Source: Parcubacteria group bacterium
GTDB lineage: Bacteria > Patescibacteriota > Minisyncoccia > Phycocordibacterales > Phycocordibacteraceae
Length of the DNA stretch: 64,000 nt
Direction: 5' to 3'
Assembly (NCBI GenBank): GCA_028286525.1
Contig: JAQBRL010000020.1
Span: 7,444 to 71,443, forward strand
Shown: positions 1 to 52,369 of the stretch, piece by piece
Position numbering within the stretch: the stretch's first letter is position 1
Layout: each line of letters starts with the position of its first letter
Translations under genes and position numbers: made by a program
Notes under the pieces: model-generated
The model's database searches: none
Told to the model about the DNA's origin: nothing
Seen by the model: the letters and a program-made list of their open reading frames with translations, nothing else

Positions 1-2835
1 GCCCAAGAAAAATGGGAGAAGCTCGACCTGTATGCGACCGATCTCACGGACGATTCGAAGGAGAAGTACTATCTCCTCTTCGAATTCCCGTATCCTTCCG
101 GCGACCTGCATATCGGGCACTGGTATGCCTTCGCGCTGACCGACATCTACGCACGCAAGCTGCGCATGGCCGGGAAGAATGTCCTGTTCCCGATGGGCTT
201 CGACGCCTTCGGCCTGCCCGCCGAGAACGCTGCTATCAAGAATGGCGTGGACCCTAAGAAATGGACGTACGAGAACATGGAGCGCATGCGCACCCAGATG
301 CGCACGATGGGAGCCTCTATGGATTGGAGCAAAGAGGTCGTCACCTGCGATCCCGGCTACTACAAATGGACGCAGTGGCTCTTCGCGAAGCTGTTCGAGC
401 ATGGTCTCGCCGAGCGCAAGAACGCAGCGGTAAAATGGTGCCCCTTCGACAAGACGGTGCTCGCCAACGAGCAGGTGATCGATGGCCATTGCGAACGCTG
501 CGGCCACGAAGTCGAGGAAAAGAATCTCACCCAGTGGTTCCTGAAGATCACCCAATACGCCGAACGCCTCCTGAAGGATCTGGAGCCTCTTCCGTGGCGC
601 GAAGATATCAAGGATGCGCAGCGCGCGTGGATAGGCGAAAGCGAGGGCGCGAAGCTGGTCTTCATGGCGCACACGGGAGAGGAGGATGCACCGGTGCCGC
701 TCGAAGTGTTCACCACCCGCCCGGACACCGTCTTCGGCGCGACCTACCTGGTGCTCGCGCCTGAGCATCCGATGGTCGATGTCTTGATACAGGACGCGCT
801 CAATCCCGAGGCGATACGGGCCTACCAGCGAGAGACCGGTAAAAAGACCGAACGCGAGCGCAGCGAGAACAAGGAGAAGACCGGCGTCGCGCTCGAAGGC
901 ATCACCGCGACGAATCCCGCTACCAAAGAAGAGGTGCCGGTCTACCTGGCTGACTACGTCCTCGCGTCGTACGGTACGGGTGCGGTCATGGCGGTGCCGG
1001 CGCATGACGAACGCGATTTCGAATTCGCGCAGCGTTATCAGCTCCCTATCAAGGACGTCATCGAGCCGGTGTTCGTGCGCACCATCGGCACGGACGCCGT
1101 GCGTCCGGAGGAACCCATGGTAGAGCGCCAGGCGGTGGTCGCTATCGTAAAGCACTGGGGGGAGGACAAGTACCTGTGCCTTCGCTGGAAATCGAACGAC
1201 TGGACCGGCTTCGTCATCGGCGGCATCGAGGAAGGCGAAGAGCCGAGCGTCACGGGCGCCCGCGAGATAACGGAAGAGACCGGCTATAAGAACCCGCGAT
1301 TCGTGCGTGATATGGGAGTGCCCACGCATTCGCAGTTCTATCACGAGGTGAAGCGCCAGAATCGCTTCGCGCATTTCACTCCCCTGTACTACGAGCTTGC
1401 GGACGGCGAGCGCGAGGAACCTTCGGCCGAGGAGCTCGCCATTCACGATATAGAGTGGGTAGCGAAAGAGGATATGGATGCGTATCTTTCACGCGATAAT
1501 GACATCGCCTATATATGGAAGCGTTTCGTCGCTCCTGCGTTCCCATACACGGGCGACGGTATCCTCGCCAACTCGGACAGCTTCGATGGACGCAGCAATC
1601 GCGAAGCGATGACCGAGCTGATCGCGTACGCGGGCGGCGAAGCCGTCAAGCAGTACCGTCTGCGGGATTGGCTCGTCTCGCGCCAGCGCTACTGGGGCTG
1701 CCCGATACCGATCGTCTACGATCCGGAAGGGAATGCGCACCTCGTGCCGAACGACCATCTGCCTTGGCTGCTTCCGGAAGATGTGGATTTCACGCCAGGC
1801 GCCGCGGGTGTCGGTACCTCGCCGCTTTCTACTTCCCGCGAGCTCAAGGAGCGCGTCGAGCGCATCTTCGGTGCGGGTTGGACCCCGGAATACGACACTC
1901 TCGATACCTTCGTCGATTCATCGTGGTACTACCTGCGCTACGTGGACCCCGCGGACGCGCATGATTTCTCGGACCAGGGCTTGCTGAAGAAATGGATGCC
2001 GGTGGATCGCTACTCGGGCGGAAGCGAGCATACGACCATGCATCTTCTCTATGCCCGGTTCTTCAATAAAGCGCTGTACGACCTTGCGCTCGTGCCGACC
2101 TCCGAACCATTCAATGAGCGCTACAACCGCGGCGTCATCCTCGGGCCGGATGGAGCGAAGATGAGCAAATCGAAAGGCAACGTCATCAATCCCGACGAAG
2201 TCGTATCGAAATTCGGTTCGGACGCCGTACGCATGTACCTCGCCTTCATCGGTCCTTATAACGAAACCGGCAGTTATCCCTGGAATCTCGACGGGGCCTT
2301 CGCGATGCGTAAATTCCTGGACAGGGTATACACGCTGTTCGAGGGAACGGCAACGGAGAAATCGAATCCGGAGGTACTCCGTGCGCTCGCGGTAGCTATC
2401 GATAAAGTCACTGCCGATACCGACCGCTTCAAATTCAATACCGCGCTTTCGGCGCTCATGGTGCTGGTTCGGGACCTGGAGAGCCATGCGCAGCTCGCCC
2501 CGGACGCGAAGCGAACGCTCCTCGCCCTGCTTGCGCCGTTCGCGCCTCATCTGGCGGAGCATTTGTGGGAGAAGATGGGCGAGGAAGGAAGCGTGCACCA
2601 AATGGTATGGCCGGAAGCGGACCCCGCACTCCTTTCGGCCAGTGAGATCGTGATAGGAGTACAGGTGAACGGAAAAAAACGCGGCGAAGTGCGCCTGTCG
2701 CTCACTGCTTCTGAAGATGAAGCGCTCATGGAGGCCCGGAAGGTTCCAGCGATCGCGCTGCTCCTCGGAGAGACCGCTCCCGCGCGCGTCGTCTATGTCC
2801 CGGGCCGTATCCTGAACATAGTCACCCAGGGGTGA
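1..2835 (+). CDS. leuS: Leucyl-tRNA synthetase, 5' partial. Carries an internal NUDIX-box insertion of about 155 aa (see findings).
   Basis: Frame-1 translation from nt 1 reads HIGH (LHIGHWY), AVPAHDERDFEFA, YRLRDWLVSRQRYWGCPIPI and KMSKSKGN; the ORF is open at the window start. Confidence 0.95.
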   Translation, partial: AQEKWEKLDLYATDLTDDSKEKYYLLFEFPYPSGDLHIGHWYAFALTDIYARKLRMAGKNVLFPMGFDAFGLPAENAAIKNGVDPKKWTYENMERMRTQMRTMGASMDWSKEVVTCDPGYYKWTQWLFAKLFEHGLAERKNAAVKWCPFDKTVLANEQVIDGHCERCGHEVEEKNLTQWFLKITQYAERLLKDLEPLPWREDIKDAQRAWIGESEGAKLVFMAHTGEEDAPVPLEVFTTRPDTVFGATYLVLAPEHPMVDVLIQDALNPEAIRAYQRETGKKTERERSENKEKTGVALEGITATNPATKEEVPVYLADYVLASYGTGAVMAVPAHDERDFEFAQRYQLPIKDVIEPVFVRTIGTDAVRPEEPMVERQAVVAIVKHWGEDKYLCLRWKSNDWTGFVIGGIEEGEEPSVTGAREITEETGYKNPRFVRDMGVPTHSQFYHEVKRQNRFAHFTPLYYELADGEREEPSAEELAIHDIEWVAKEDMDAYLSRDNDIAYIWKRFVAPAFPYTGDGILANSDSFDGRSNREAMTELIAYAGGEAVKQYRLRDWLVSRQRYWGCPIPIVYDPEGNAHLVPNDHLPWLLPEDVDFTPGAAGVGTSPLSTSRELKERVERIFGAGWTPEYDTLDTFVDSSWYYLRYVDPADAHDFSDQGLLKKWMPVDRYSGGSEHTTMHLLYARFFNKALYDLALVPTSEPFNERYNRGVILGPDGAKMSKSKGNVINPDEVVSKFGSDAVRMYLAFIGPYNETGSYPWNLDGAFAMRKFLDRVYTLFEGTATEKSNPEVLRALAVAIDKVTADTDRFKFNTALSALMVLVRDLESHAQLAPDAKRTLLALLAPFAPHLAEHLWEKMGEEGSVHQMVWPEADPALLSASEIVIGVQVNGKKRGEVRLSLTASEDEALMEARKVPAIALLLGETAPARVVYVPGRILNIVTQG
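1219..1287 (+). other. Canonical NUDIX box (GX5EX7REUXEEXGU) encoded inside leuS
   Basis: The peptide GGIEEGEEPSVTGAREITEETGY fits G-x5-E-x7-R-E-I-x-E-E-x-G-Y exactly. Confidence 0.75.
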
Positions 2836-13230: not shown

Positions 13231-15213
13231 ATGACCGTTTCAGAAGTACGCACACGTTACCTCGCCTTCTTTGCGGCGCGTGGTCACGTCATAATCCCAT
13301 CAGCACCGATAGTGCCGGGGAACGACCCTACCACGCTCTTTACCTCGTCCGGCATGCAGCCCCTTATTCCGTACCTGCTCGGTAAGGACCACCCGGAAGG
13401 GAAGCGCATCGTTAATTCCCAGATGAGCTTTCGGGCGGGCGATATCGAGGAAGTGGGCGACAATCGCCACACGACGTTCTTCGAGATGCTCGGCAATTGG
13501 TCGCTCGGCGACTATTTCAAGAAAGAGCAGCTACCCTGGTTCTTCGAGTTCATGACGAGCAAAGAAGAAGGCTTAGGACTCGATCCTACGAAACTCTTCG
13601 TCACGGTATTTGCGGGCGACCCCGATACGGGCATGGAGATGGATACCGAAGCCGTGGGCATATGGCAAGAACTCTTCAAGACCAAAGGCATCGATGCCGA
13701 ATTCGCGGATATCGGCAGCGAAGCAGCCGGCTACGAGCACGGCATTAATGGTAACGAACGCATATTCGCTTACGACGCCAAGAAGAACTGGTGGAGCCGC
13801 TCGGGCGTACCTGCCAACATGCCTGCCGGAGAGCCAGGTGGACCGGATTCCGAGGTCTTCTACGACTTCGGTCTTCCGCACGACCCAAAGTGGGGCCCGA
13901 AATGCCATCCGAACTGCGACTGCGGCCGTTTCGTCGAGATAGGGAACTCGGTCTTCATGCAGTTCATAAAGAATGCTGACGGGTCATTCTCGAATCTTCC
14001 GAAGCAGAACGTGGACTTTGGAGGCGGGCTTGAGCGTCTTGCGTTCGCTACGCTCGATAAACCTGACGTTTTTCTCATAGATGTATTTGATACAGCTCGG
14101 AACGCGATTGAATATCTATCCGGAAAAATATATGGGTCAGATGAAAAAATAACAAAGTCTTTCCGCATCATTTTGGATCACATGAGAGCATCCACCTTCA
14201 TCCTTGCTGAAGGTATAGTTCCCGCAAGCACGGAGGCTGGTTATGTCCTTAGGCGTTTGTTGCGTCGCGCAATTCGTGAGACCGATAGATTGGGAGTCAA
14301 GGACAAAGTTCTTGCATCTGTAGCTGAAGAGTTTGCTGACAAATATGCAGACCAGTATCCACGCTTGCAGGAAAATAAGCTCAAGATTTTGGATGAAATT
14401 GCAAAGGAAGAGGAGCAGTTCAGGAGAACACTCGAAACGGGTTTGAAGCAATTCGAGAAGGCAATCAGCATTAAGTCAGGCATTGTTAGCAATGCCGATC
14501 AACGCAAGGAACTTGAAGAACGAGTCTACATTAAGACTCTGGGAGCAGAAACGGTTTTCGAGTTGATGACAACCTATGGCTTCCCAGAAGAACTCATTCG
14601 AGAAGAACTAGCTTCGCACAATATCTCAGTTGATGATTGGGATATGGTCAAAAGCTTGTTCGAAAAACATCGCGAGCTTTCCCGCGCCGGAGGCGCGCAG
14701 AAATTCGCCGGAGGCCTTGCCGACCACTCCGAGCAGACCGTGCGCTACCACACGACGCATCACATCCTACTCAAAGCGCTCCAGATGGTGCTCGGGGACG
14801 AGGTCAAGCAGCGGGGAAGCAATATCACGAGCGAGCGCTTGCGCATCGACTTCTCCTCCCCCGGCAAGATGACTCCAGAGCAGAAAGAAGAGGTAGAGAG
14901 GATAGTGAACGAAATTATCTACCAGGACCTGCCGGTATCGCGCACCGTCATGCCACGGGAAGAGGCCGAGAAGCTCGGTGCCCAGATGGAATTCGGGGTG
15001 AAGTATCCCGACATGGTATCGGTGTATTCGGTCGGTCCTATCCATGCAACAGAGGAGAATCCCGATATTCCGAACGCATTCTCGCTGGAGTTCTGCGGCG
15101 GACCGCATGTGAAGAGCACAAAGGATATCCATGACGGCGGCAAGCGTTTCAAGATACAGAAAGAGGAGGCAGTCGCTGCAGGCATCCGCCGCATCAAGGC
15201 AGTGCTCGAATAA
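13231..15213 (+). CDS. alaS: Alanyl-tRNA synthetase, short form (catalytic, tRNA-recognition and editing domains; no C-Ala domain)
   Basis: Class II AlaRS N-terminal motifs are present. The editing-domain HTTHHILLKALQ and CGGPHV signatures are also present. The protein is 660 aa. Confidence 0.95.
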   Translation: MTVSEVRTRYLAFFAARGHVIIPSAPIVPGNDPTTLFTSSGMQPLIPYLLGKDHPEGKRIVNSQMSFRAGDIEEVGDNRHTTFFEMLGNWSLGDYFKKEQLPWFFEFMTSKEEGLGLDPTKLFVTVFAGDPDTGMEMDTEAVGIWQELFKTKGIDAEFADIGSEAAGYEHGINGNERIFAYDAKKNWWSRSGVPANMPAGEPGGPDSEVFYDFGLPHDPKWGPKCHPNCDCGRFVEIGNSVFMQFIKNADGSFSNLPKQNVDFGGGLERLAFATLDKPDVFLIDVFDTARNAIEYLSGKIYGSDEKITKSFRIILDHMRASTFILAEGIVPASTEAGYVLRRLLRRAIRETDRLGVKDKVLASVAEEFADKYADQYPRLQENKLKILDEIAKEEEQFRRTLETGLKQFEKAISIKSGIVSNADQRKELEERVYIKTLGAETVFELMTTYGFPEELIREELASHNISVDDWDMVKSLFEKHRELSRAGGAQKFAGGLADHSEQTVRYHTTHHILLKALQMVLGDEVKQRGSNITSERLRIDFSSPGKMTPEQKEEVERIVNEIIYQDLPVSRTVMPREEAEKLGAQMEFGVKYPDMVSVYSVGPIHATEENPDIPNAFSLEFCGGPHVKSTKDIHDGGKRFKIQKEEAVAAGIRRIKAVLE

Positions 15214-37639: not shown

Positions 37640-37657
37640 CCCTGGTATAGTGGAGGC

Positions 37658-38890
37658 ATGAACCTCATCGAGGACCTGAAAGCACGCGGACTCGTCGAGC
37701 ATCACTCGGCGGAGCTCGAGAAGATATTCGCGACCAAGCGCACCGTCTACCTCGGCGTAGACCCTTCCGCCGACTCGATGCAAGCTGGCAATCTCGCCGT
37801 GATACTTCTCATGAAGCGTCTTGCGGACGCAGGGCACCGCATCATCCTGCTCGTGGGCGGCGGCACCGGCATGATAGGCGACCCGCGCGAGAGCGGAGAG
37901 CGGACGCTCCCGGACGAACGCGCCATCAAGCGCAACGCGAAAGCGCTTCGCGACCAGATGCAGCGCATCGTGGGCAGCCGGGTGACGCTCGTGAATAACG
38001 CGGACTGGCTGCTGAAGATAAAGCTGGTCGATTTCCTGCGGGATATCGGCAAGCATTTCACCGTGAACGAGCTCATAAAGCGCGATATCATCCGCAAACG
38101 CCTCGAAACGCCGGACGAGAGCATTTCATACACCGAGTTCGCGTACTCGCTTCTCCAAGGCTACGACTATCTGACCCTGAACCAGAAATACGGATGCGAC
38201 CTGCAGGTGGGCGGCTCCGACCAATGGACGAACCTGCTCTCGGGAGTGGAGCTCATCCGCCGCAAGCTCGGCAAGGAGGCCTTTGCAGTGACCATTCCGC
38301 TCGTCACCGACGCAACGGGAAAGAAGTTCGGTAAGTCCGAAGGGAACGCCGTTTGGCTTGCTGCGTCGAGGACCTCTCCTTTCGCGTTCTACCAATTCTG
38401 GCTGAACCAGCCGGATACCGAGGTGGGCAAGCTCATGAAGTTCTATACCTTCCTGTCGCCCATAGAGATAAACGCGCTCATGGAATTGCATGCGCGTAAC
38501 CCTGAACGCCGTACCGCCCAGCGCAAGCTCGCGCTCGAAGTGACCACGCTCGTGCATGGAGAGACGGAAGCGATGCGCGCGGAGAAGTTCACGGACATCC
38601 TGTTCGGGAACGCGTCGCTCGACCAGCTCGCTGCCGCAGAGCGCGAAGCGCTTTTCTCGTCGGTGCCTTCAGCGAGCGTGCCGGACGGCACGAGTATCGT
38701 CGATACGCTCACGAGCACGGAGTTCGTAGCATCGAAATCGGAAGCGAGACGGCTTATAGACGCGAAGGGTATCAGGCTCAACGGCGAAACCGTTACCAGC
38801 GACCGGCCTCTCACCGCATCGGACTTCGAGAAGGGCCTTGCCGTCCTCCAAAAAGGGAAGTCCGAGAAGCTTTTGGTCCGCTTCAAATAG
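37658..38890 (+). CDS. tyrS: Tyrosyl-tRNA synthetase (HIGH motif replaced by QAGN)
   Basis: It is collinear with E. coli TyrRS, including KFGKSEGNAVWL (KMSKS-type) and a C-terminal S4 domain. Confidence 0.9.
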   Translation: MNLIEDLKARGLVEHHSAELEKIFATKRTVYLGVDPSADSMQAGNLAVILLMKRLADAGHRIILLVGGGTGMIGDPRESGERTLPDERAIKRNAKALRDQMQRIVGSRVTLVNNADWLLKIKLVDFLRDIGKHFTVNELIKRDIIRKRLETPDESISYTEFAYSLLQGYDYLTLNQKYGCDLQVGGSDQWTNLLSGVELIRRKLGKEAFAVTIPLVTDATGKKFGKSEGNAVWLAASRTSPFAFYQFWLNQPDTEVGKLMKFYTFLSPIEINALMELHARNPERRTAQRKLALEVTTLVHGETEAMRAEKFTDILFGNASLDQLAAAEREALFSSVPSASVPDGTSIVDTLTSTEFVASKSEARRLIDAKGIRLNGETVTSDRPLTASDFEKGLAVLQKGKSEKLLVRFK

Positions 38891-38892
38891 CC

Positions 38893-39501
38893 ATGGAAAC
38901 CGAATGGGAAGCGACGTTCTGGCCCATCGATAAGGAAAACGTTCGTGCTCGACTTAAAACCGCTGGCGCGTCCCTTATCTTTCCGGAGCGGCGCATGCGA
39001 CGTGTAAATCTATATCCGCCCGACGAAGAGTACGCTCTTCGAGCATGGGTGCGCGTACGGGACGAAGGGGACCGAATCACCCTGAGCCTGAAGGAACGAC
39101 GAGGAGATAATTCGCAGATCGAACACCAAGGCGAGATCGAACTTATCATTGATGATTTCGACCGCGCAGGAGAACTCTTGCGGCACCTGGGATGCCGGGA
39201 TAAGAATTATCAGGAGACCAACCGTGAACTATGGAAATTGCATGGTGCATCGATAACCATCGACGAATGGCCCTGGCTTGAGCCATTGATCGAGATCGAA
39301 GGTATTTCGGAGGAGCATGTGAAAGATGTGAGCACCAGGCTCGGTTTCGATTGGAATGAAGCACGTTTCGATACTGCCGATAAGATCTACGCTCAGAAGT
39401 ATGGTGTCGAGTCTCAGTTCGTAAATCGCAGTATTCCGCGGCTTATCTTCGAGGGAGATAATCCGTTCCAAAATCAAGGCCAAGCTGATATAGTGGCCTA
39501 G
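38893..39501 (+). CDS. CYTH-domain protein (triphosphate tunnel metalloenzyme family)
   Basis: ExExK-like acidic residues lie near the N-terminus (METEWEATF) and the size is about 200 aa. Confidence 0.6.
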   Translation: METEWEATFWPIDKENVRARLKTAGASLIFPERRMRRVNLYPPDEEYALRAWVRVRDEGDRITLSLKERRGDNSQIEHQGEIELIIDDFDRAGELLRHLGCRDKNYQETNRELWKLHGASITIDEWPWLEPLIEIEGISEEHVKDVSTRLGFDWNEARFDTADKIYAQKYGVESQFVNRSIPRLIFEGDNPFQNQGQADIVA

Positions 39502-39505
39502 TTGC

Positions 39506-39588
39506 GCGTCGGTGGTAGAGTGGTCAATTACAACAGGCTGTAAACCTGTCGGCTTCGGCCTACGAAGGTTCGAATCCTTCCCGGCGCA
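39506..39588 (+). tRNA. tRNA-Tyr (anticodon GTA), type II with long variable arm
   Basis: Hand-folded: acceptor GCGTCGG/CCGGCGC; D-arm GTAG...TTAC; anticodon stem ACAGG/CCTGT with loop CTGTAAA; variable arm CGGCTTCGGCCTACG; T-arm GAAGG-TTCGAAT-CCTTC; discriminator A. CCA is not encoded. Confidence 0.8.
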
Positions 39589-39593
39589 CACGG

Positions 39594-39620
39594 AAAGCTC
39601 CCGCAAGGGAGCTTTGTGCA
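39594..39620 (+). terminator. Rho-independent terminator after tRNA-Tyr
   Basis: A 9-bp stem (aaagctccc/gggagcttt) with a gcaa loop is followed by gtgcatat. Confidence 0.55.
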
Positions 39621-40040: not shown

Positions 40041-40997
40041 ATGCCCATGTCCAAACCAGTCCTCCTGTCCGGCATGAAGCCGACCGGCACCGCTCATATC
40101 GGTAACTATTTCGGTGCGCTCAAACAGTGGGTCGACCTGCAAGAGGCAGGTGCCCACGATTGCTTCTTCATGATCGCGGACTACCACGCGCTCAACTTCA
40201 TTCAGGATGCAGGCCAGATGCACGCGCTTACGACGGAACTCGCACGCACCTTGCTCGCCATAGGCCTCGACCCAGAGCGCGTCACCATCTTCAAACAATC
40301 TACCGTCGCGGCTCATACCGAGCTCACGTGGATATTCGATACCATAACCACCATGCCGTATCTCATGCGCGCGCATGCCTTCAAGGATGCCGAGGCGAAG
40401 GATAAGGAAATAAACGTAGGCACCTTCAATTATCCGATGCTCATGGCGGCCGATATCCTGCTCTACGACGCAAAGGCCGTGCCCGTAGGCCAGGACCAGA
40501 AGCAGCATATCGAATACGCACGCGATACCGCGGAGAAATTCAATCGCGTCTTCAATGCCGAAACCTTCATCCTCCCCGAGCCCTATATCATGCCGGAAGT
40601 CGCCATCGTACCAGGTACCGACGGTCAGAAGATGAGCAAATCCTATGGAAACACCATTCCTCTGTTCGCGACACATGAAGAACTCACGAAAGCGGTTATG
40701 GGCATCGTCACTGATTCTTCTGGTGAACGCCCCGGCAACGTATACGCCATCCATCGCCTCGTACGAAGCGAGGATGAACTCGATACGCTCTACGAAGAGA
40801 ACAAGGGCCAGTACAAAGCTCTTAAGGAAGCTCTTATCGAGGACCTCGAAGCATTCATCGCGCCGATGCGCAAACGATACGAAGCACTTGAAGATTCGAA
40901 CGAGATAGACAAAGTACTTACCCGTGGCGCCGAAGTCGCACGAGCGCGAACGGACAAGAAAATGTATGAAGTTCGGTCCGCAATTGGGGTTTCCTAA
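40041..40997 (+). CDS. trpS: Tryptophanyl-tRNA synthetase
   Basis: TGTAHIGNYFGA (HIGH-type) and KMSKSYGN are present. Confidence 0.92.
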   Translation: MPMSKPVLLSGMKPTGTAHIGNYFGALKQWVDLQEAGAHDCFFMIADYHALNFIQDAGQMHALTTELARTLLAIGLDPERVTIFKQSTVAAHTELTWIFDTITTMPYLMRAHAFKDAEAKDKEINVGTFNYPMLMAADILLYDAKAVPVGQDQKQHIEYARDTAEKFNRVFNAETFILPEPYIMPEVAIVPGTDGQKMSKSYGNTIPLFATHEELTKAVMGIVTDSSGERPGNVYAIHRLVRSEDELDTLYEENKGQYKALKEALIEDLEAFIAPMRKRYEALEDSNEIDKVLTRGAEVARARTDKKMYEVRSAIGVS

Positions 40998-41386: not shown

Positions 41387-42697
41387 ATGCAGGGCCGAAT
41401 ACTGATAGGGGAGCTGGCTTCCCATGTAGGTGAGACCGTGACCATCGCTGGGTGGATAGATGTCCGCCGCGACCAGGGCAAGCTCGTATTCTTCGATTTC
41501 CGCGACCGCAGCGGCCTCGTGCAGGGTGTCATACTTCCGGGCGATGTGACCCTTATGGAGACCGCCAAAAGTACCCGTAACGAGTTCGTCGTGAGCGTAA
41601 CCGGCATCGTGAATAAGCGCCCCGAGAAGAACGTTCAAGAGGGGAAGCTGAACGGGGACATCGAACTCGAAATAAAGGGGATCGAGATACTCTCTAAGGC
41701 AGAAGAACTTCCGTTCGATAAGGACACCGACCTCAATATCGACACGCGGTTCGATTACCGCCCCTACACGCTCCGCAGCCAACGAGATAGAGACATCTTT
41801 ACGGTGCAGGCCACTATACTCGACGCGTATCGCAACTCACTCACGCGCCAAGGCCTCTTGGAATTCGTCGCGCCAGCGCTCGTGGGAGGAGACGCCGAAG
41901 GAGGGGCAGCAGTCTTTAAGGTTGGGTACTACTACGACCAGACCGCGTACCTCGCGACCTCGCCGCAGCTCTATAAGCAGATCATGGTCGGTGCATTCGA
42001 ACGCGTCTTCACCATCGCGAAGATCTTCCGTGCGGAGAAGCACGCGACCACGCGCCATCTTTCCGAGCTGACCCAGATGGACTTCGAGATGGGCTTCATA
42101 CAGGACGAATTCGACGTCATGGCAGTGCTCGAGACCGTAGTTCGCGATACCGTTACTGAAGTAGCGGACAAGCACGCAGCCGAGTTCGAACGCCTGGGCG
42201 CGGAAGTGCCCCAGCTCGGCGAGAAGTTCCCTGTACTTACGCTCGCTGAAGCCCACAAGACGCTCGGAGTCGCTCCGGAAGACGACATGACGCCCGAGCA
42301 CGAGCGCGACATATGCGCGTGGGCGCTCAAGGAGCATGGTTCTGACTTCGTATTCATCACGAAGTTCCCGACCGCTTCGCGCGCGTTCTATACCATGTCC
42401 GACAGAGAGACGCTCAGCCGCGGCTTTGACCTCCTTTTCCGTGGACTCGAGATAAACAGCGGTGCGCAGCGCATCCATGACTATGACGAGATGGTGGCTC
42501 GCATCGTCGAGCGCGGAATGGACCCTGCGAAATTCGCATTCTATCTCCAAGCATTCAAGTACGGCATGCCGCCGCACGGTGGCTGCTCAACGGGGCTTGA
42601 GCGCTTTACGGCGCGCATGCTCGAACTGGGTAACGTGAAAGAGGCGAGTGCCTTCCCGCGCGACATGAATCGTATCGATACGCTCCTCTCCCAATAG
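41387..42697 (+). CDS. aspS: Aspartyl-tRNA synthetase, short (archaeal/non-discriminating-type, 436 aa)
   Basis: Class II motifs 1-3 and an N-terminal OB fold are present, with no GAD insertion. Confidence 0.9.
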   Translation: MQGRILIGELASHVGETVTIAGWIDVRRDQGKLVFFDFRDRSGLVQGVILPGDVTLMETAKSTRNEFVVSVTGIVNKRPEKNVQEGKLNGDIELEIKGIEILSKAEELPFDKDTDLNIDTRFDYRPYTLRSQRDRDIFTVQATILDAYRNSLTRQGLLEFVAPALVGGDAEGGAAVFKVGYYYDQTAYLATSPQLYKQIMVGAFERVFTIAKIFRAEKHATTRHLSELTQMDFEMGFIQDEFDVMAVLETVVRDTVTEVADKHAAEFERLGAEVPQLGEKFPVLTLAEAHKTLGVAPEDDMTPEHERDICAWALKEHGSDFVFITKFPTASRAFYTMSDRETLSRGFDLLFRGLEINSGAQRIHDYDEMVARIVERGMDPAKFAFYLQAFKYGMPPHGGCSTGLERFTARMLELGNVKEASAFPRDMNRIDTLLSQ

Positions 42698-50947: not shown

Positions 50948-52369
50948 ATGAACGTACGCACAAGGTTTGCGCCCAGCCCCACTGGCTTCATGCATGTAGG
51001 CGGCATCCGCACCGCCCTCTTCTCGTGGCTATACGCCCGCAAGCATGGGGGGCAATTCATATTGCGTATCGAGGATACCGACCAGGAGCGGGAAACGGAG
51101 GGCTCGGTAGGGCACATCATCGAATCCCTGAAGTGGCTCGGTATCGAGTACGACGAGGGTCCGGACATCGGCGGAGCGCATGACCCGTACTTCCAGTCGG
51201 CCCGCCTCGACCTGTACAAGCGCTATGCGGATCAGCTCATCGCGGCAGGGTTCGCGTACGCCGACCCGTTCACCGAAGAGGAAGTGGAAGCACTGCGCGC
51301 GCAGGCGGAAGCCGAGAAGCGTCCCTTCCTGTACCGCGAGCATCGGCCGGAGACGTTCGACGAATGGGACGGCACGCGCCCGCTGCGCTTTCGCGTACCC
51401 GAGGTCAAGCGCTACACCTGGACCGACCTCGTGCGCGGCGAGCTTACGGCGGGTGAGGAAGCGCTCGACGATTTCATACTCATCAAGACGGATGGATTCC
51501 CGACATATAACTTCGCCCATGTCGTGGACGATATAGAAATGGAGATAACCCACGTGATGCGGGGCGAGGAATTCATCTCCTCCACGCCAAAATTCCTCTC
51601 GCTCTACGAGGCGCTCGATACGGCGCCGCCTGCATTCGCTACGATGCCGGTCATCCTCGGACCCGATGGCAAAAAGAAACTTTCGAAGCGCGACGGGGCA
51701 AAAGACATCCTTGAATATCGCGATGAGGGCTATCTGCCGCAGGCCATGCGCAATTTCCTTGCGCTCGTCGGGTGGAATCCGGGTACCGAGCAGGAAGTGC
51801 TCTCGGACGATGAGCTTACTTCCGCGTTCGATATCACGCGCGTCCAGAAGAGCGGGGGAGCCTTCGACGAGCAGAAGCTGCTGTTCATCAATCGCGAATG
51901 GATGCGACGCTTATCGGATGAAGACTTCATACTCGAAGGCGAGCTTGAGGCATCCAGCACCAGCAGATTGCTCGCTGCCGTACCGCTTCTGAAGGAGCGT
52001 GCGTCCACCTTTGCGGAGGCCCGCGGAATGCTTACCAGAGAGCTCGCCTGCCTTTTCTCCACTCCGTCGCCTGAGCGCGACCCGCTCATAGAGAAAGCAC
52101 CGCCCGAAGCCACAAAAGCCCATTTGCAAGCGTTTTTAGGCCTTATAGAGGGGCTTCCGCCGCTTACGCATGCCGATATGGTCAAAGAAGCGCTTATGCC
52201 GTACGCGGATGCGATTCCGAAGGAAGCGGGCGGCCGCGGAGCGGCCCTGTGGCCGCTCCGCTATGCGCTTTCCGGAGCCGAGCGTTCGCCTGACCCCTTC
52301 ACCCTCATCCATATACTGGGCGCAAACGAATCGCTCTCGCGCATCAAGAACGCAATTGATATACTTTAG
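50948..52369 (+). CDS. gltX: Glutamyl-tRNA synthetase
   Basis: PSPTGFMHVGG (HIGH-type) and KLSKRDG (KMSKS-type) are present. Confidence 0.95.
   Translation: MNVRTRFAPSPTGFMHVGGIRTALFSWLYARKHGGQFILRIEDTDQERETEGSVGHIIESLKWLGIEYDEGPDIGGAHDPYFQSARLDLYKRYADQLIAAGFAYADPFTEEEVEALRAQAEAEKRPFLYREHRPETFDEWDGTRPLRFRVPEVKRYTWTDLVRGELTAGEEALDDFILIKTDGFPTYNFAHVVDDIEMEITHVMRGEEFISSTPKFLSLYEALDTAPPAFATMPVILGPDGKKKLSKRDGAKDILEYRDEGYLPQAMRNFLALVGWNPGTEQEVLSDDELTSAFDITRVQKSGGAFDEQKLLFINREWMRRLSDEDFILEGELEASSTSRLLAAVPLLKERASTFAEARGMLTRELACLFSTPSPERDPLIEKAPPEATKAHLQAFLGLIEGLPPLTHADMVKEALMPYADAIPKEAGGRGAALWPLRYALSGAERSPDPFTLIHILGANESLSRIKNAIDIL

Follow-up and report, generated by a model that had tools for sequence, protein, structure and literature searches.

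In class I aminoacyl-tRNA synthetases, amino-acid activation passes through a transition state that is stabilised by the HIGH residues and by the KMSKS loop, and the glycine of HIGH gives space for adenine (PMC10485003). Tyrosyl-tRNA synthetase (TyrRS) was the first enzyme used for side-chain dissection of a transition state, and its two HIGH histidines, His45 and His48, are textbook residues. Natural departures from the signature have been described in related enzymes. In bacterial tryptophanyl-tRNA synthetase (TrpRS), a class Ic enzyme and the closest paralogue of TyrRS, the HIGH equivalent is TIGN (Escherichia coli, Bacillus stearothermophilus), and its Asn (Asn18) makes contact with the scissile oxygen that bridges the alpha- and beta-phosphates (PMC2879500, PMC10201369). 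In the isoleucyl-tRNA synthetase IleRS2, the signature G/AXHH is a natural variation that had gone unrecognised until a report of 2023; it has multiple origins and natural reversions, carries little catalytic cost and has been tied experimentally to mupirocin resistance (PMC10485003). Within TyrRS itself, the solved structure from Elizabethkingia anophelis (6n0w) reads HIGS, and HIGN is found in the cultured bacteria Demequina, Promicromonospora and Myceligenerans. In this study, we report the analysis of the tyrS gene carried by a 64,000-nucleotide stretch (hereafter the window) of contig JAQBRL010000020.1 from a Parcubacteria group bacterium, the product of which reads Gln-Ala-Gly-Asn (QAGN) at the position of HIGH.

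The window TyrRS resembles TrpRS in that both histidines are replaced, position 1 is polar, the glycine is kept and position 4 is Asn; it differs in amino-acid specificity, in family and in having Gln rather than Thr at position 1. With IleRS2 it shares a natural, clade-wide alteration of HIGH in a housekeeping synthetase, whereas IleRS2 swaps the first and third positions and keeps two histidines. The HIGS and HIGN forms of TyrRS also have the position-4 histidine replaced but, unlike the window enzyme, keep the first. TyrRS with the pattern QxGN are widespread in databases, where they are routinely annotated as tyrosine--tRNA ligase, and no papers on QxGN or TxGN TyrRS were found in the open-access literature.

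A bacterial type-1 TyrRS reading QAGN at the HIGH position

The 410-residue product of the window tyrS scored 344.1 bits against the NCBIfam tyrS equivalog TIGR00234 (cut-off 113.8), the match spanning residues 2-408, and contained the Pfam class I W/Y catalytic domain PF00579 (E = 6e-72) followed by a C-terminal SYY/S4-like tRNA-binding domain (Table 1). Comparison with solved TyrRS (1jii, 6otj, 6hb5, 2ts1) using HMMER gave E values of ~1e-95. With the type-1 enzymes 2ts1, 6hb5 and 1jii it shared ~40-48% identity over the whole length, the domain order (Rossmann catalytic domain, helical domain, S4-like tail), the tyrosine-binding residues and KFGKS. The AlphaFold2 (AF2) model had a mean predicted local distance difference test score (pLDDT) of 87.5 and a predicted template modelling score of 0.85; the top 50 Foldseek matches of this model were all TyrRS, with TM-scores up to 0.82. 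The database holds a 100% identical protein under the name 'Tyrosine--tRNA ligase', encoded by the metagenome-assembled genome (MAG) of a Parcubacteria group bacterium. By every test but the literal HxGH string, the window protein is a bacterial type-1 TyrRS. A TyrRS of the archaeal/eukaryal type was ruled out, as the best matches were bacterial type-1 enzymes and the tRNA-Tyr of the window has G1-C72. Pairwise comparisons gave nonsynonymous divergence (dN) of 0.14-0.30 while synonymous divergence (dS) was saturated (at least 1.5, or undefined), with dN/dS well below 0.1; tyrS is therefore under strong purifying selection.

The signature is encoded by ATG CAA GCT GGC AAT, read as M41-Q42-A43-G44-N45. 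In HMMER pairwise alignments, 'dsmqagnl' of the window enzyme stood opposite 'DSLHIGHL' in 1jii (Staphylococcus aureus), 2ts1 (B. stearothermophilus, Bst) and 6otj (Neisseria gonorrhoeae), and opposite 'DSLHLGHL' in 6hb5 (E. coli), each alignment being gap-free over 25 residues on either side of the motif. A 263-sequence MAFFT alignment placed the residues in the same columns, Q42 (37781-37783) at Bst H45 and N45 (37790-37792) at Bst H48. Since the HMMER and MAFFT column assignments agree, a shift of the motif was rejected, and no intact HIGH was found elsewhere near the N-terminus. The AF2 model agrees with this position: strand 29-34 is followed by helix 43-57, and the motif lies at the junction of the strand with the first helix, where HIGH sits. 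The literal HxGH signature is thus absent from the window TyrRS, in which Gly alone is retained. A sequencing accident was rejected as the cause, QAGN being present in 91 of the 120 nearest homologues, which come from independent assemblies. Also rejected was a genome-wide avoidance of His in signatures: the leucyl-tRNA synthetase (LeuRS) of the window has HIGH, and its glutamyl-tRNA synthetase (GluRS) has the usual HVGG.

The remainder of the active site is conventional. The KFGKS sequence at the KMSKS position is intact, and its K223, G225 and K226 are invariant in a 43-sequence alignment of relatives. Equivalents of Bst Y34, D38, D78, R86, Y169, Q173, D176, D194, Q195, K230 and K233 are all present. 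Apart from the signature, the window enzyme differs from the type-1 TyrRS named above in the mobile loop corresponding to Bst D78-R86, which reads DPR-ESGER against DPSGKKSER in Bst: one residue is deleted and no Lys is found at the position of K82, while R77 and R82 are present. In the predicted structure, residues 71-90 have a low pLDDT (51-67), which is consistent with mobility of the loop.

Compensation for QAGN by this loop was considered and rejected. The same shortened loop is common to HVGH, HAGH and HAGN members of the clade, so it is uncoupled from QAGN; it is also found in Mycobacterium tuberculosis TyrRS (2jan), which has DPRDVGER, likewise without the Lys of Bst K82, and shares Ala at motif position 2 but, unlike the window enzyme, has the canonical His at both positions (HAGH). 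Nor did any other column change consistently in 22 lineage pairs with different residues at position 1; Bst positions 50 and 54 showed weak trends that were unconvincing.

A preliminary description of this DNA had stated that both HIGH histidines were replaced in a TyrRS colinear with the E. coli enzyme, including KFGKS and the S4 domain. The alignments to solved TyrRS and the MAFFT columns bear out the replacement, and residues 223-227 and the Pfam matches confirm the other two features.

Distribution of the signature and conservation of the locus

The 120 closest homologues, at 64-100% identity and from Parcubacteria/Paceibacteria, were examined for their motifs. QAGN was found in 91, HAGN in 13, HVGH in 8, HAGH in 3, QVGN and QIGN in 2 each and HVGS in 1; QAGN is clade-wide in Paceibacteria. 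The nearest genomes are labelled Paceibacterota, Kaiserbacteria, Parcubacteria or Patescibacteria, together with two bins auto-labelled Saccharibacteria; Saccharibacteria loci at ~42% identity have HIGH. The canonical and intermediate motifs (HAGN, HAGH, HVGH) are interleaved with QAGN among the relatives. HAGH is present in two proteins that are 78-80% identical to the window TyrRS (P0008 and P0010), four QAGN/HAGN pairs are separated by a corrected distance of only 0.08-0.11, and QAGN, HAGN and HAGH enzymes span corrected distances of ~0.1 to 0.3. Exchange of His for Gln or for Asn takes one base change each, and the relatives use both codons of each replacement residue (CAA and CAG for Gln, AAT and AAC for Asn).

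The locus keeps the same order whatever the motif: histidine kinase, tyrS, a variable slot, tRNA-Tyr, trpS and aspS. This order was seen with QAGN (loci L001, L003, L008, L012 and L013), HAGH (L002 and L009), HAGN (L004 and L015) and HVGH (L011, L016 and L017). Because it occupies this same locus next to tRNA-Tyr, trpS and aspS, the window tyrS is the orthologue of the HVGH and HAGH genes of sister lineages and not an extra copy. The tRNA-Tyr lies directly downstream in 15 of the 17 closest loci, the other two loci ending too early. In that of the window, G1-C72 and A73 are accompanied by a long variable arm, and 15 relatives have exactly the same acceptor stem (GCGUCGG/CCGGCGC) and A73, whether their enzymes are QAGN, HAGN, HAGH or HVGH. 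The adjacent tRNA-Tyr has bacterial identity; in lineages of the candidate phyla radiation (CPR) with an acquired archaeal-type TyrRS, tRNA-Tyr carries C1-G72 (PMC5370408).

The pattern is also found outside this clade. Scanning one genome for each species yielded six Chloroflexota/Anaerolineae loci, all with QVGN, and 119 of the 120 closest relatives of one Anaerolineae locus were QxGN (QVGN 112, QIGN 6, QAGN 1, with HVGN 1). These sequences included contigs of 1-2 Mb and one entry labelled Roseiflexaceae. An exhaustive HMMER search of cluster representatives (50% clustering) returned 2,120 matches below 1e-30, and 142 of the best 150 were examined. At positions 1 and 4 these representatives read H/N in 50, H/H in 39, H/S in 34, Q/N in 11, T/N in 7 and Q/Q in 1. 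The literal HxGH was thus found in 39 of the 142 representatives near the window TyrRS, the first histidine was absent from 19, and the TrpRS-like TxGN also occurs in TyrRS (7/142). One representative, from a Deltaproteobacteria MAG, had QLGN. No solved TyrRS without the first histidine was found among the structures retrieved. In cultured bacteria, HVGS is found in Weeksella, Empedobacter and Vaginella, in addition to the HIGN genera named above. Given the count of 39 in 142, these HIGN and HVGS enzymes and the HIGS of 6n0w, bacterial type-1 TyrRS are in practice not defined by the literal HxGH.

The two histidine positions do not vary independently. In all sequences examined, a non-His residue (Q or T) at position 1 occurred only with N, and once with Q, at position 4, never with H or S. 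With His at position 1, the counts of N, H and S at position 4 were comparable. The contrast between 18 N and 1 other for non-His, and 50 N and 73 other for His, gave a Fisher p of 6.5e-6, uncorrected for phylogeny. Parsimony on a rough neighbour-joining tree required a minimum of 24 switches between His and non-His at position 1, and of 52 changes at position 4. Position 4 appears to be labile, and Asn at that position appears to be permissive for loss of the first histidine, an event that seems to take place in HxGN enzymes. With Asn at position 4, H and Q at position 1 seem close to interchangeable and the difference near neutral, judging from the alternation of the two between nearly identical enzymes.

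Function of the QAGN enzyme and alternative explanations

The window TyrRS is most likely an ordinary housekeeping enzyme that acts on the adjacent tRNA-Tyr by the normal class I mechanism, with QAGN serving as an alternative form of HIGH, and is presumably the only TyrRS of its genome. It would activate tyrosine with ATP and then charge the adjacent bacterial-type tRNA-Tyr. The side-chain amide N-H donors of Gln and Asn would stand in for the two imidazole N-H donors, Gln42 taking the place of the first histidine in contact with the gamma-phosphate in the transition state, and Asn45 that of the fourth-position histidine in contact with the ribose and alpha-phosphate region, while the retained Gly would make room for adenine; bacterial TrpRS, with its TIGN, offers a solution of this kind. 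Asn at position 4 would be needed before the first histidine can go. In mutagenesis of the Bst enzyme from the Fersht laboratory, His48Asn is said to have been nearly wild type (Lowe and co-workers, in 1985), and Asn and Gln were reportedly used there as steric mimics of the two imidazole nitrogens.

Several points weigh against this assignment. The hydrogen-bond roles of Gln42 and Asn45 are inferred from homology, and no enzymology for any QxGN TyrRS was found in the literature. The genome is known only from one 78-kb MAG contig, and a second tyrS may be present elsewhere. The sequences behind the motif frequencies were ranked by their similarity to the window TyrRS and are not an unbiased census, and the test of association between positions 1 and 4 includes no phylogenetic correction. 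Mutation of the first histidine cuts activation ~1000-fold in several class I enzymes (PMC10485003), and full activity with Gln is therefore not to be assumed.

This last value also speaks for an attenuated housekeeping enzyme, in which loss of the first histidine lowers the kcat of tyrosine activation and is tolerated at a low demand for translation, as in episymbiotic CPR bacteria and Anaerolineae. Such an enzyme would overlap with the ordinary TyrRS that we favour and would differ from it only in reduced activity. The two large QxGN clades are the Paceibacteria and the Anaerolineae, both of which are slow-growing. Attenuation is nevertheless doubtful, although it is the likeliest of the alternatives considered here: Q and N are strictly conserved with synonymous codon turnover, which indicates selection and not drift, the residues found in place of the first histidine are all hydrogen-bond donors (Q or T), with no hydrophobic residue or Gly among them, and the alternation of H and Q at distances of 0.08-0.11 suggests near equivalence. 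A more elaborate proposal is that Q/T-x-G-N represents convergence on TrpRS-like transition-state stabilisation once Asn has been fixed at position 4 (an epistatic ratchet), with a functional consequence such as altered handling of ATP and pyrophosphate or, as with G/AXHH in IleRS2, lower sensitivity to natural inhibitors that mimic the adenylate; this may apply, but we consider it unlikely. An adaptive variant lowering affinity for natural TyrRS inhibitors that mimic the adenylate or bind the ATP site would have a precedent in IleRS2, where the altered HIGH raises the Ki for mupirocin up to ~1000-fold at little catalytic cost (PMC10485003), and the variant in TyrRS has arisen independently many times. 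However, no inhibitor, resistance gene context or biosynthetic cluster was identified at the locus, and the frequent Q/H reversions among close relatives resemble near-neutral toggling more than a selective sweep, which makes such an adaptation less likely still.

That the window gene is a diverged paralogue with a non-canonical role (regulatory, RNA-binding or the formation of another adenylate), while a canonical TyrRS encoded elsewhere tyrosylates the tRNA, is the most improbable of the explanations considered. Both signature histidines are gone, the incomplete genome leaves room for a second copy, and archaeal-type TyrRS are present in some CPR bacteria (PMC5370408), but the adjacent G1-C72 tRNA-Tyr suits an enzyme of the bacterial and not of the archaeal type (PMC5370408). 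The score far above the tyrS equivalog threshold, the retention of all tyrosine-binding and KMSKS residues, a dN/dS far below 0.1 and the location shared with HVGH and HAGH orthologues beside tRNA-Tyr, trpS and aspS all argue against a paralogue, as does a tblastn search of the 64-kb window, in which no class Ic gene was found besides tyrS and trpS. CPR genomes are small and redundant aminoacyl-tRNA synthetase genes are rare in them, which likewise counts against it.

Altered catalysis or a non-canonical role, both of which had been suggested in the preliminary description, find no support in a QxGN signature that is clade-wide, in a conserved housekeeping gene order, in a bacterial tRNA-Tyr and in purifying selection. 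Nor do the data favour the unusual compensating mechanism offered there, as QAGN, HAGN and HAGH switch between near-identical enzymes with no recurrent compensating change. The underlying premise, that the histidine pair is indispensable in class I enzymes, was too strong in view of TrpRS TIGN (PMC10201369, PMC2879500) and of the low count of HxGH given above.

For the window itself the consequence is modest, as the gene is most likely an ordinary tyrS. More generally, both histidines have been replaced repeatedly in nature by Gln or Thr and by Asn in housekeeping TyrRS, and the QAGN, HAGN and HAGH relatives form a natural mutant series for gauging the contribution of the imidazoles. For annotators and motif-based filters there is a warning, in that a missing HIGH in TyrRS does not imply a pseudo-enzyme; in the class I pattern of PROSITE, position 1 may be H or T, but not Q.

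Neighbouring genes and other features of the window

The coordinates of tyrS, its signatures and the other features are collected in Table 1.

Table 1. Features of the tyrS locus and other synthetase genes in the 64-kb window
Feature	Position	Strand	Basis
tyrS, bacterial-type tyrosyl-tRNA synthetase, 410 residues	37658..38890	+	TIGR00234, Pfam, solved-structure alignments, AF2/Foldseek
HIGH-position signature M41-Q42-A43-G44-N45	37778..37792	+	HMMER pairwise and MAFFT alignments, AF2 model
Mobile loop D75-P-R-E-S-G-E-R82 (Bst D78-R86)	37880..37903	+	MAFFT alignment
KMSKS-position signature K223-F-G-K-S227, intact	38324..38338	+	HMMER and MAFFT alignments
C-terminal SYY/S4-like tRNA-binding domain, residues 330-403	38645..38866	+	PF22421 35 bits, PF01479 26.5 bits
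Shine-Dalgarno sequence GGAGG ahead of tyrS	37652..37656		
tRNA-Tyr (GUA), presumed substrate	39506..39589	+	ARAGORN; Rfam tRNA 59.6 bits
CYTH-domain open reading frame, 202 residues, in tyrS/tRNA-Tyr slot	38893..39501	+	Pfam CYTH 28 bits, cut-off 23.2
Hairpin right after tRNA-Tyr	39586..39619	+	-21.1 kcal/mol, z = -4.5 against shuffles
LeuRS, running off left window edge	1..2835	+	
NUDIX domain inserted in LeuRS	~1126..1485		PF00293, 42 bits
Alanyl-tRNA synthetase (AlaRS)	13231..15213		
TrpRS	40041..40997		
Aspartyl-tRNA synthetase (AspRS)	41387..42697		
GluRS	50948..52369		

The histidine-kinase open reading frame (ORF) upstream of tyrS is separated from it by 18 nt. An RNA leader or T-box upstream of tyrS was rejected, given this gap of only 18 nt and an Rfam search that returned nothing except the tRNA. 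A scan for promoter and terminator consensus sequences gave counts not above those of shuffled sequence.

Directly downstream of tyrS are the CYTH-domain ORF and tRNA-Tyr, as had been noted before. The CYTH ORF scores below the CyaB equivalog cut-off, and among the loci of relatives tblastn detected CYTH in L001 only. What lies between tyrS and tRNA-Tyr differs among relatives; this slot is a variable insertion site and is empty in some of them. In L007 and L015 it holds a LAGLIDADG-like ORF (Pfam PF14528), and in L006, L009 and L017 an ORF of another family, of ~206-217 residues with the motif 'MLYWAEGY'; the slot ORF of L006, the one of these three that was scanned, had no Pfam match. A functional link between CYTH and QAGN was rejected on this distribution, with CYTH in L001 only among the relatives and the slot otherwise varied or empty.

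The 3' CCA is not encoded in the tRNA-Tyr of the window, which ends ...GGCGCAC-ACGG, as is also the case in L005, L015 and L017; it is encoded in 11 of 15 relatives. The hairpin that follows the tRNA lacks a T-run and may be a processing or termination structure.

Six synthetase genes are present in the 64 kb, and the run of tyrS, tRNA-Tyr, trpS and aspS is conserved across Paceibacteria. The window TrpRS reads HIGN; the listed start of its ORF is GTG 39918, with homology from near ATG 40041. In the LeuRS, a NUDIX insert follows the CP1 editing domain and precedes the second half of the catalytic domain. The Nudix box is complete (G-GIEEG-E-EPSVTGA-REITEETGY), and such a hydrolase domain within a synthetase is unusual.

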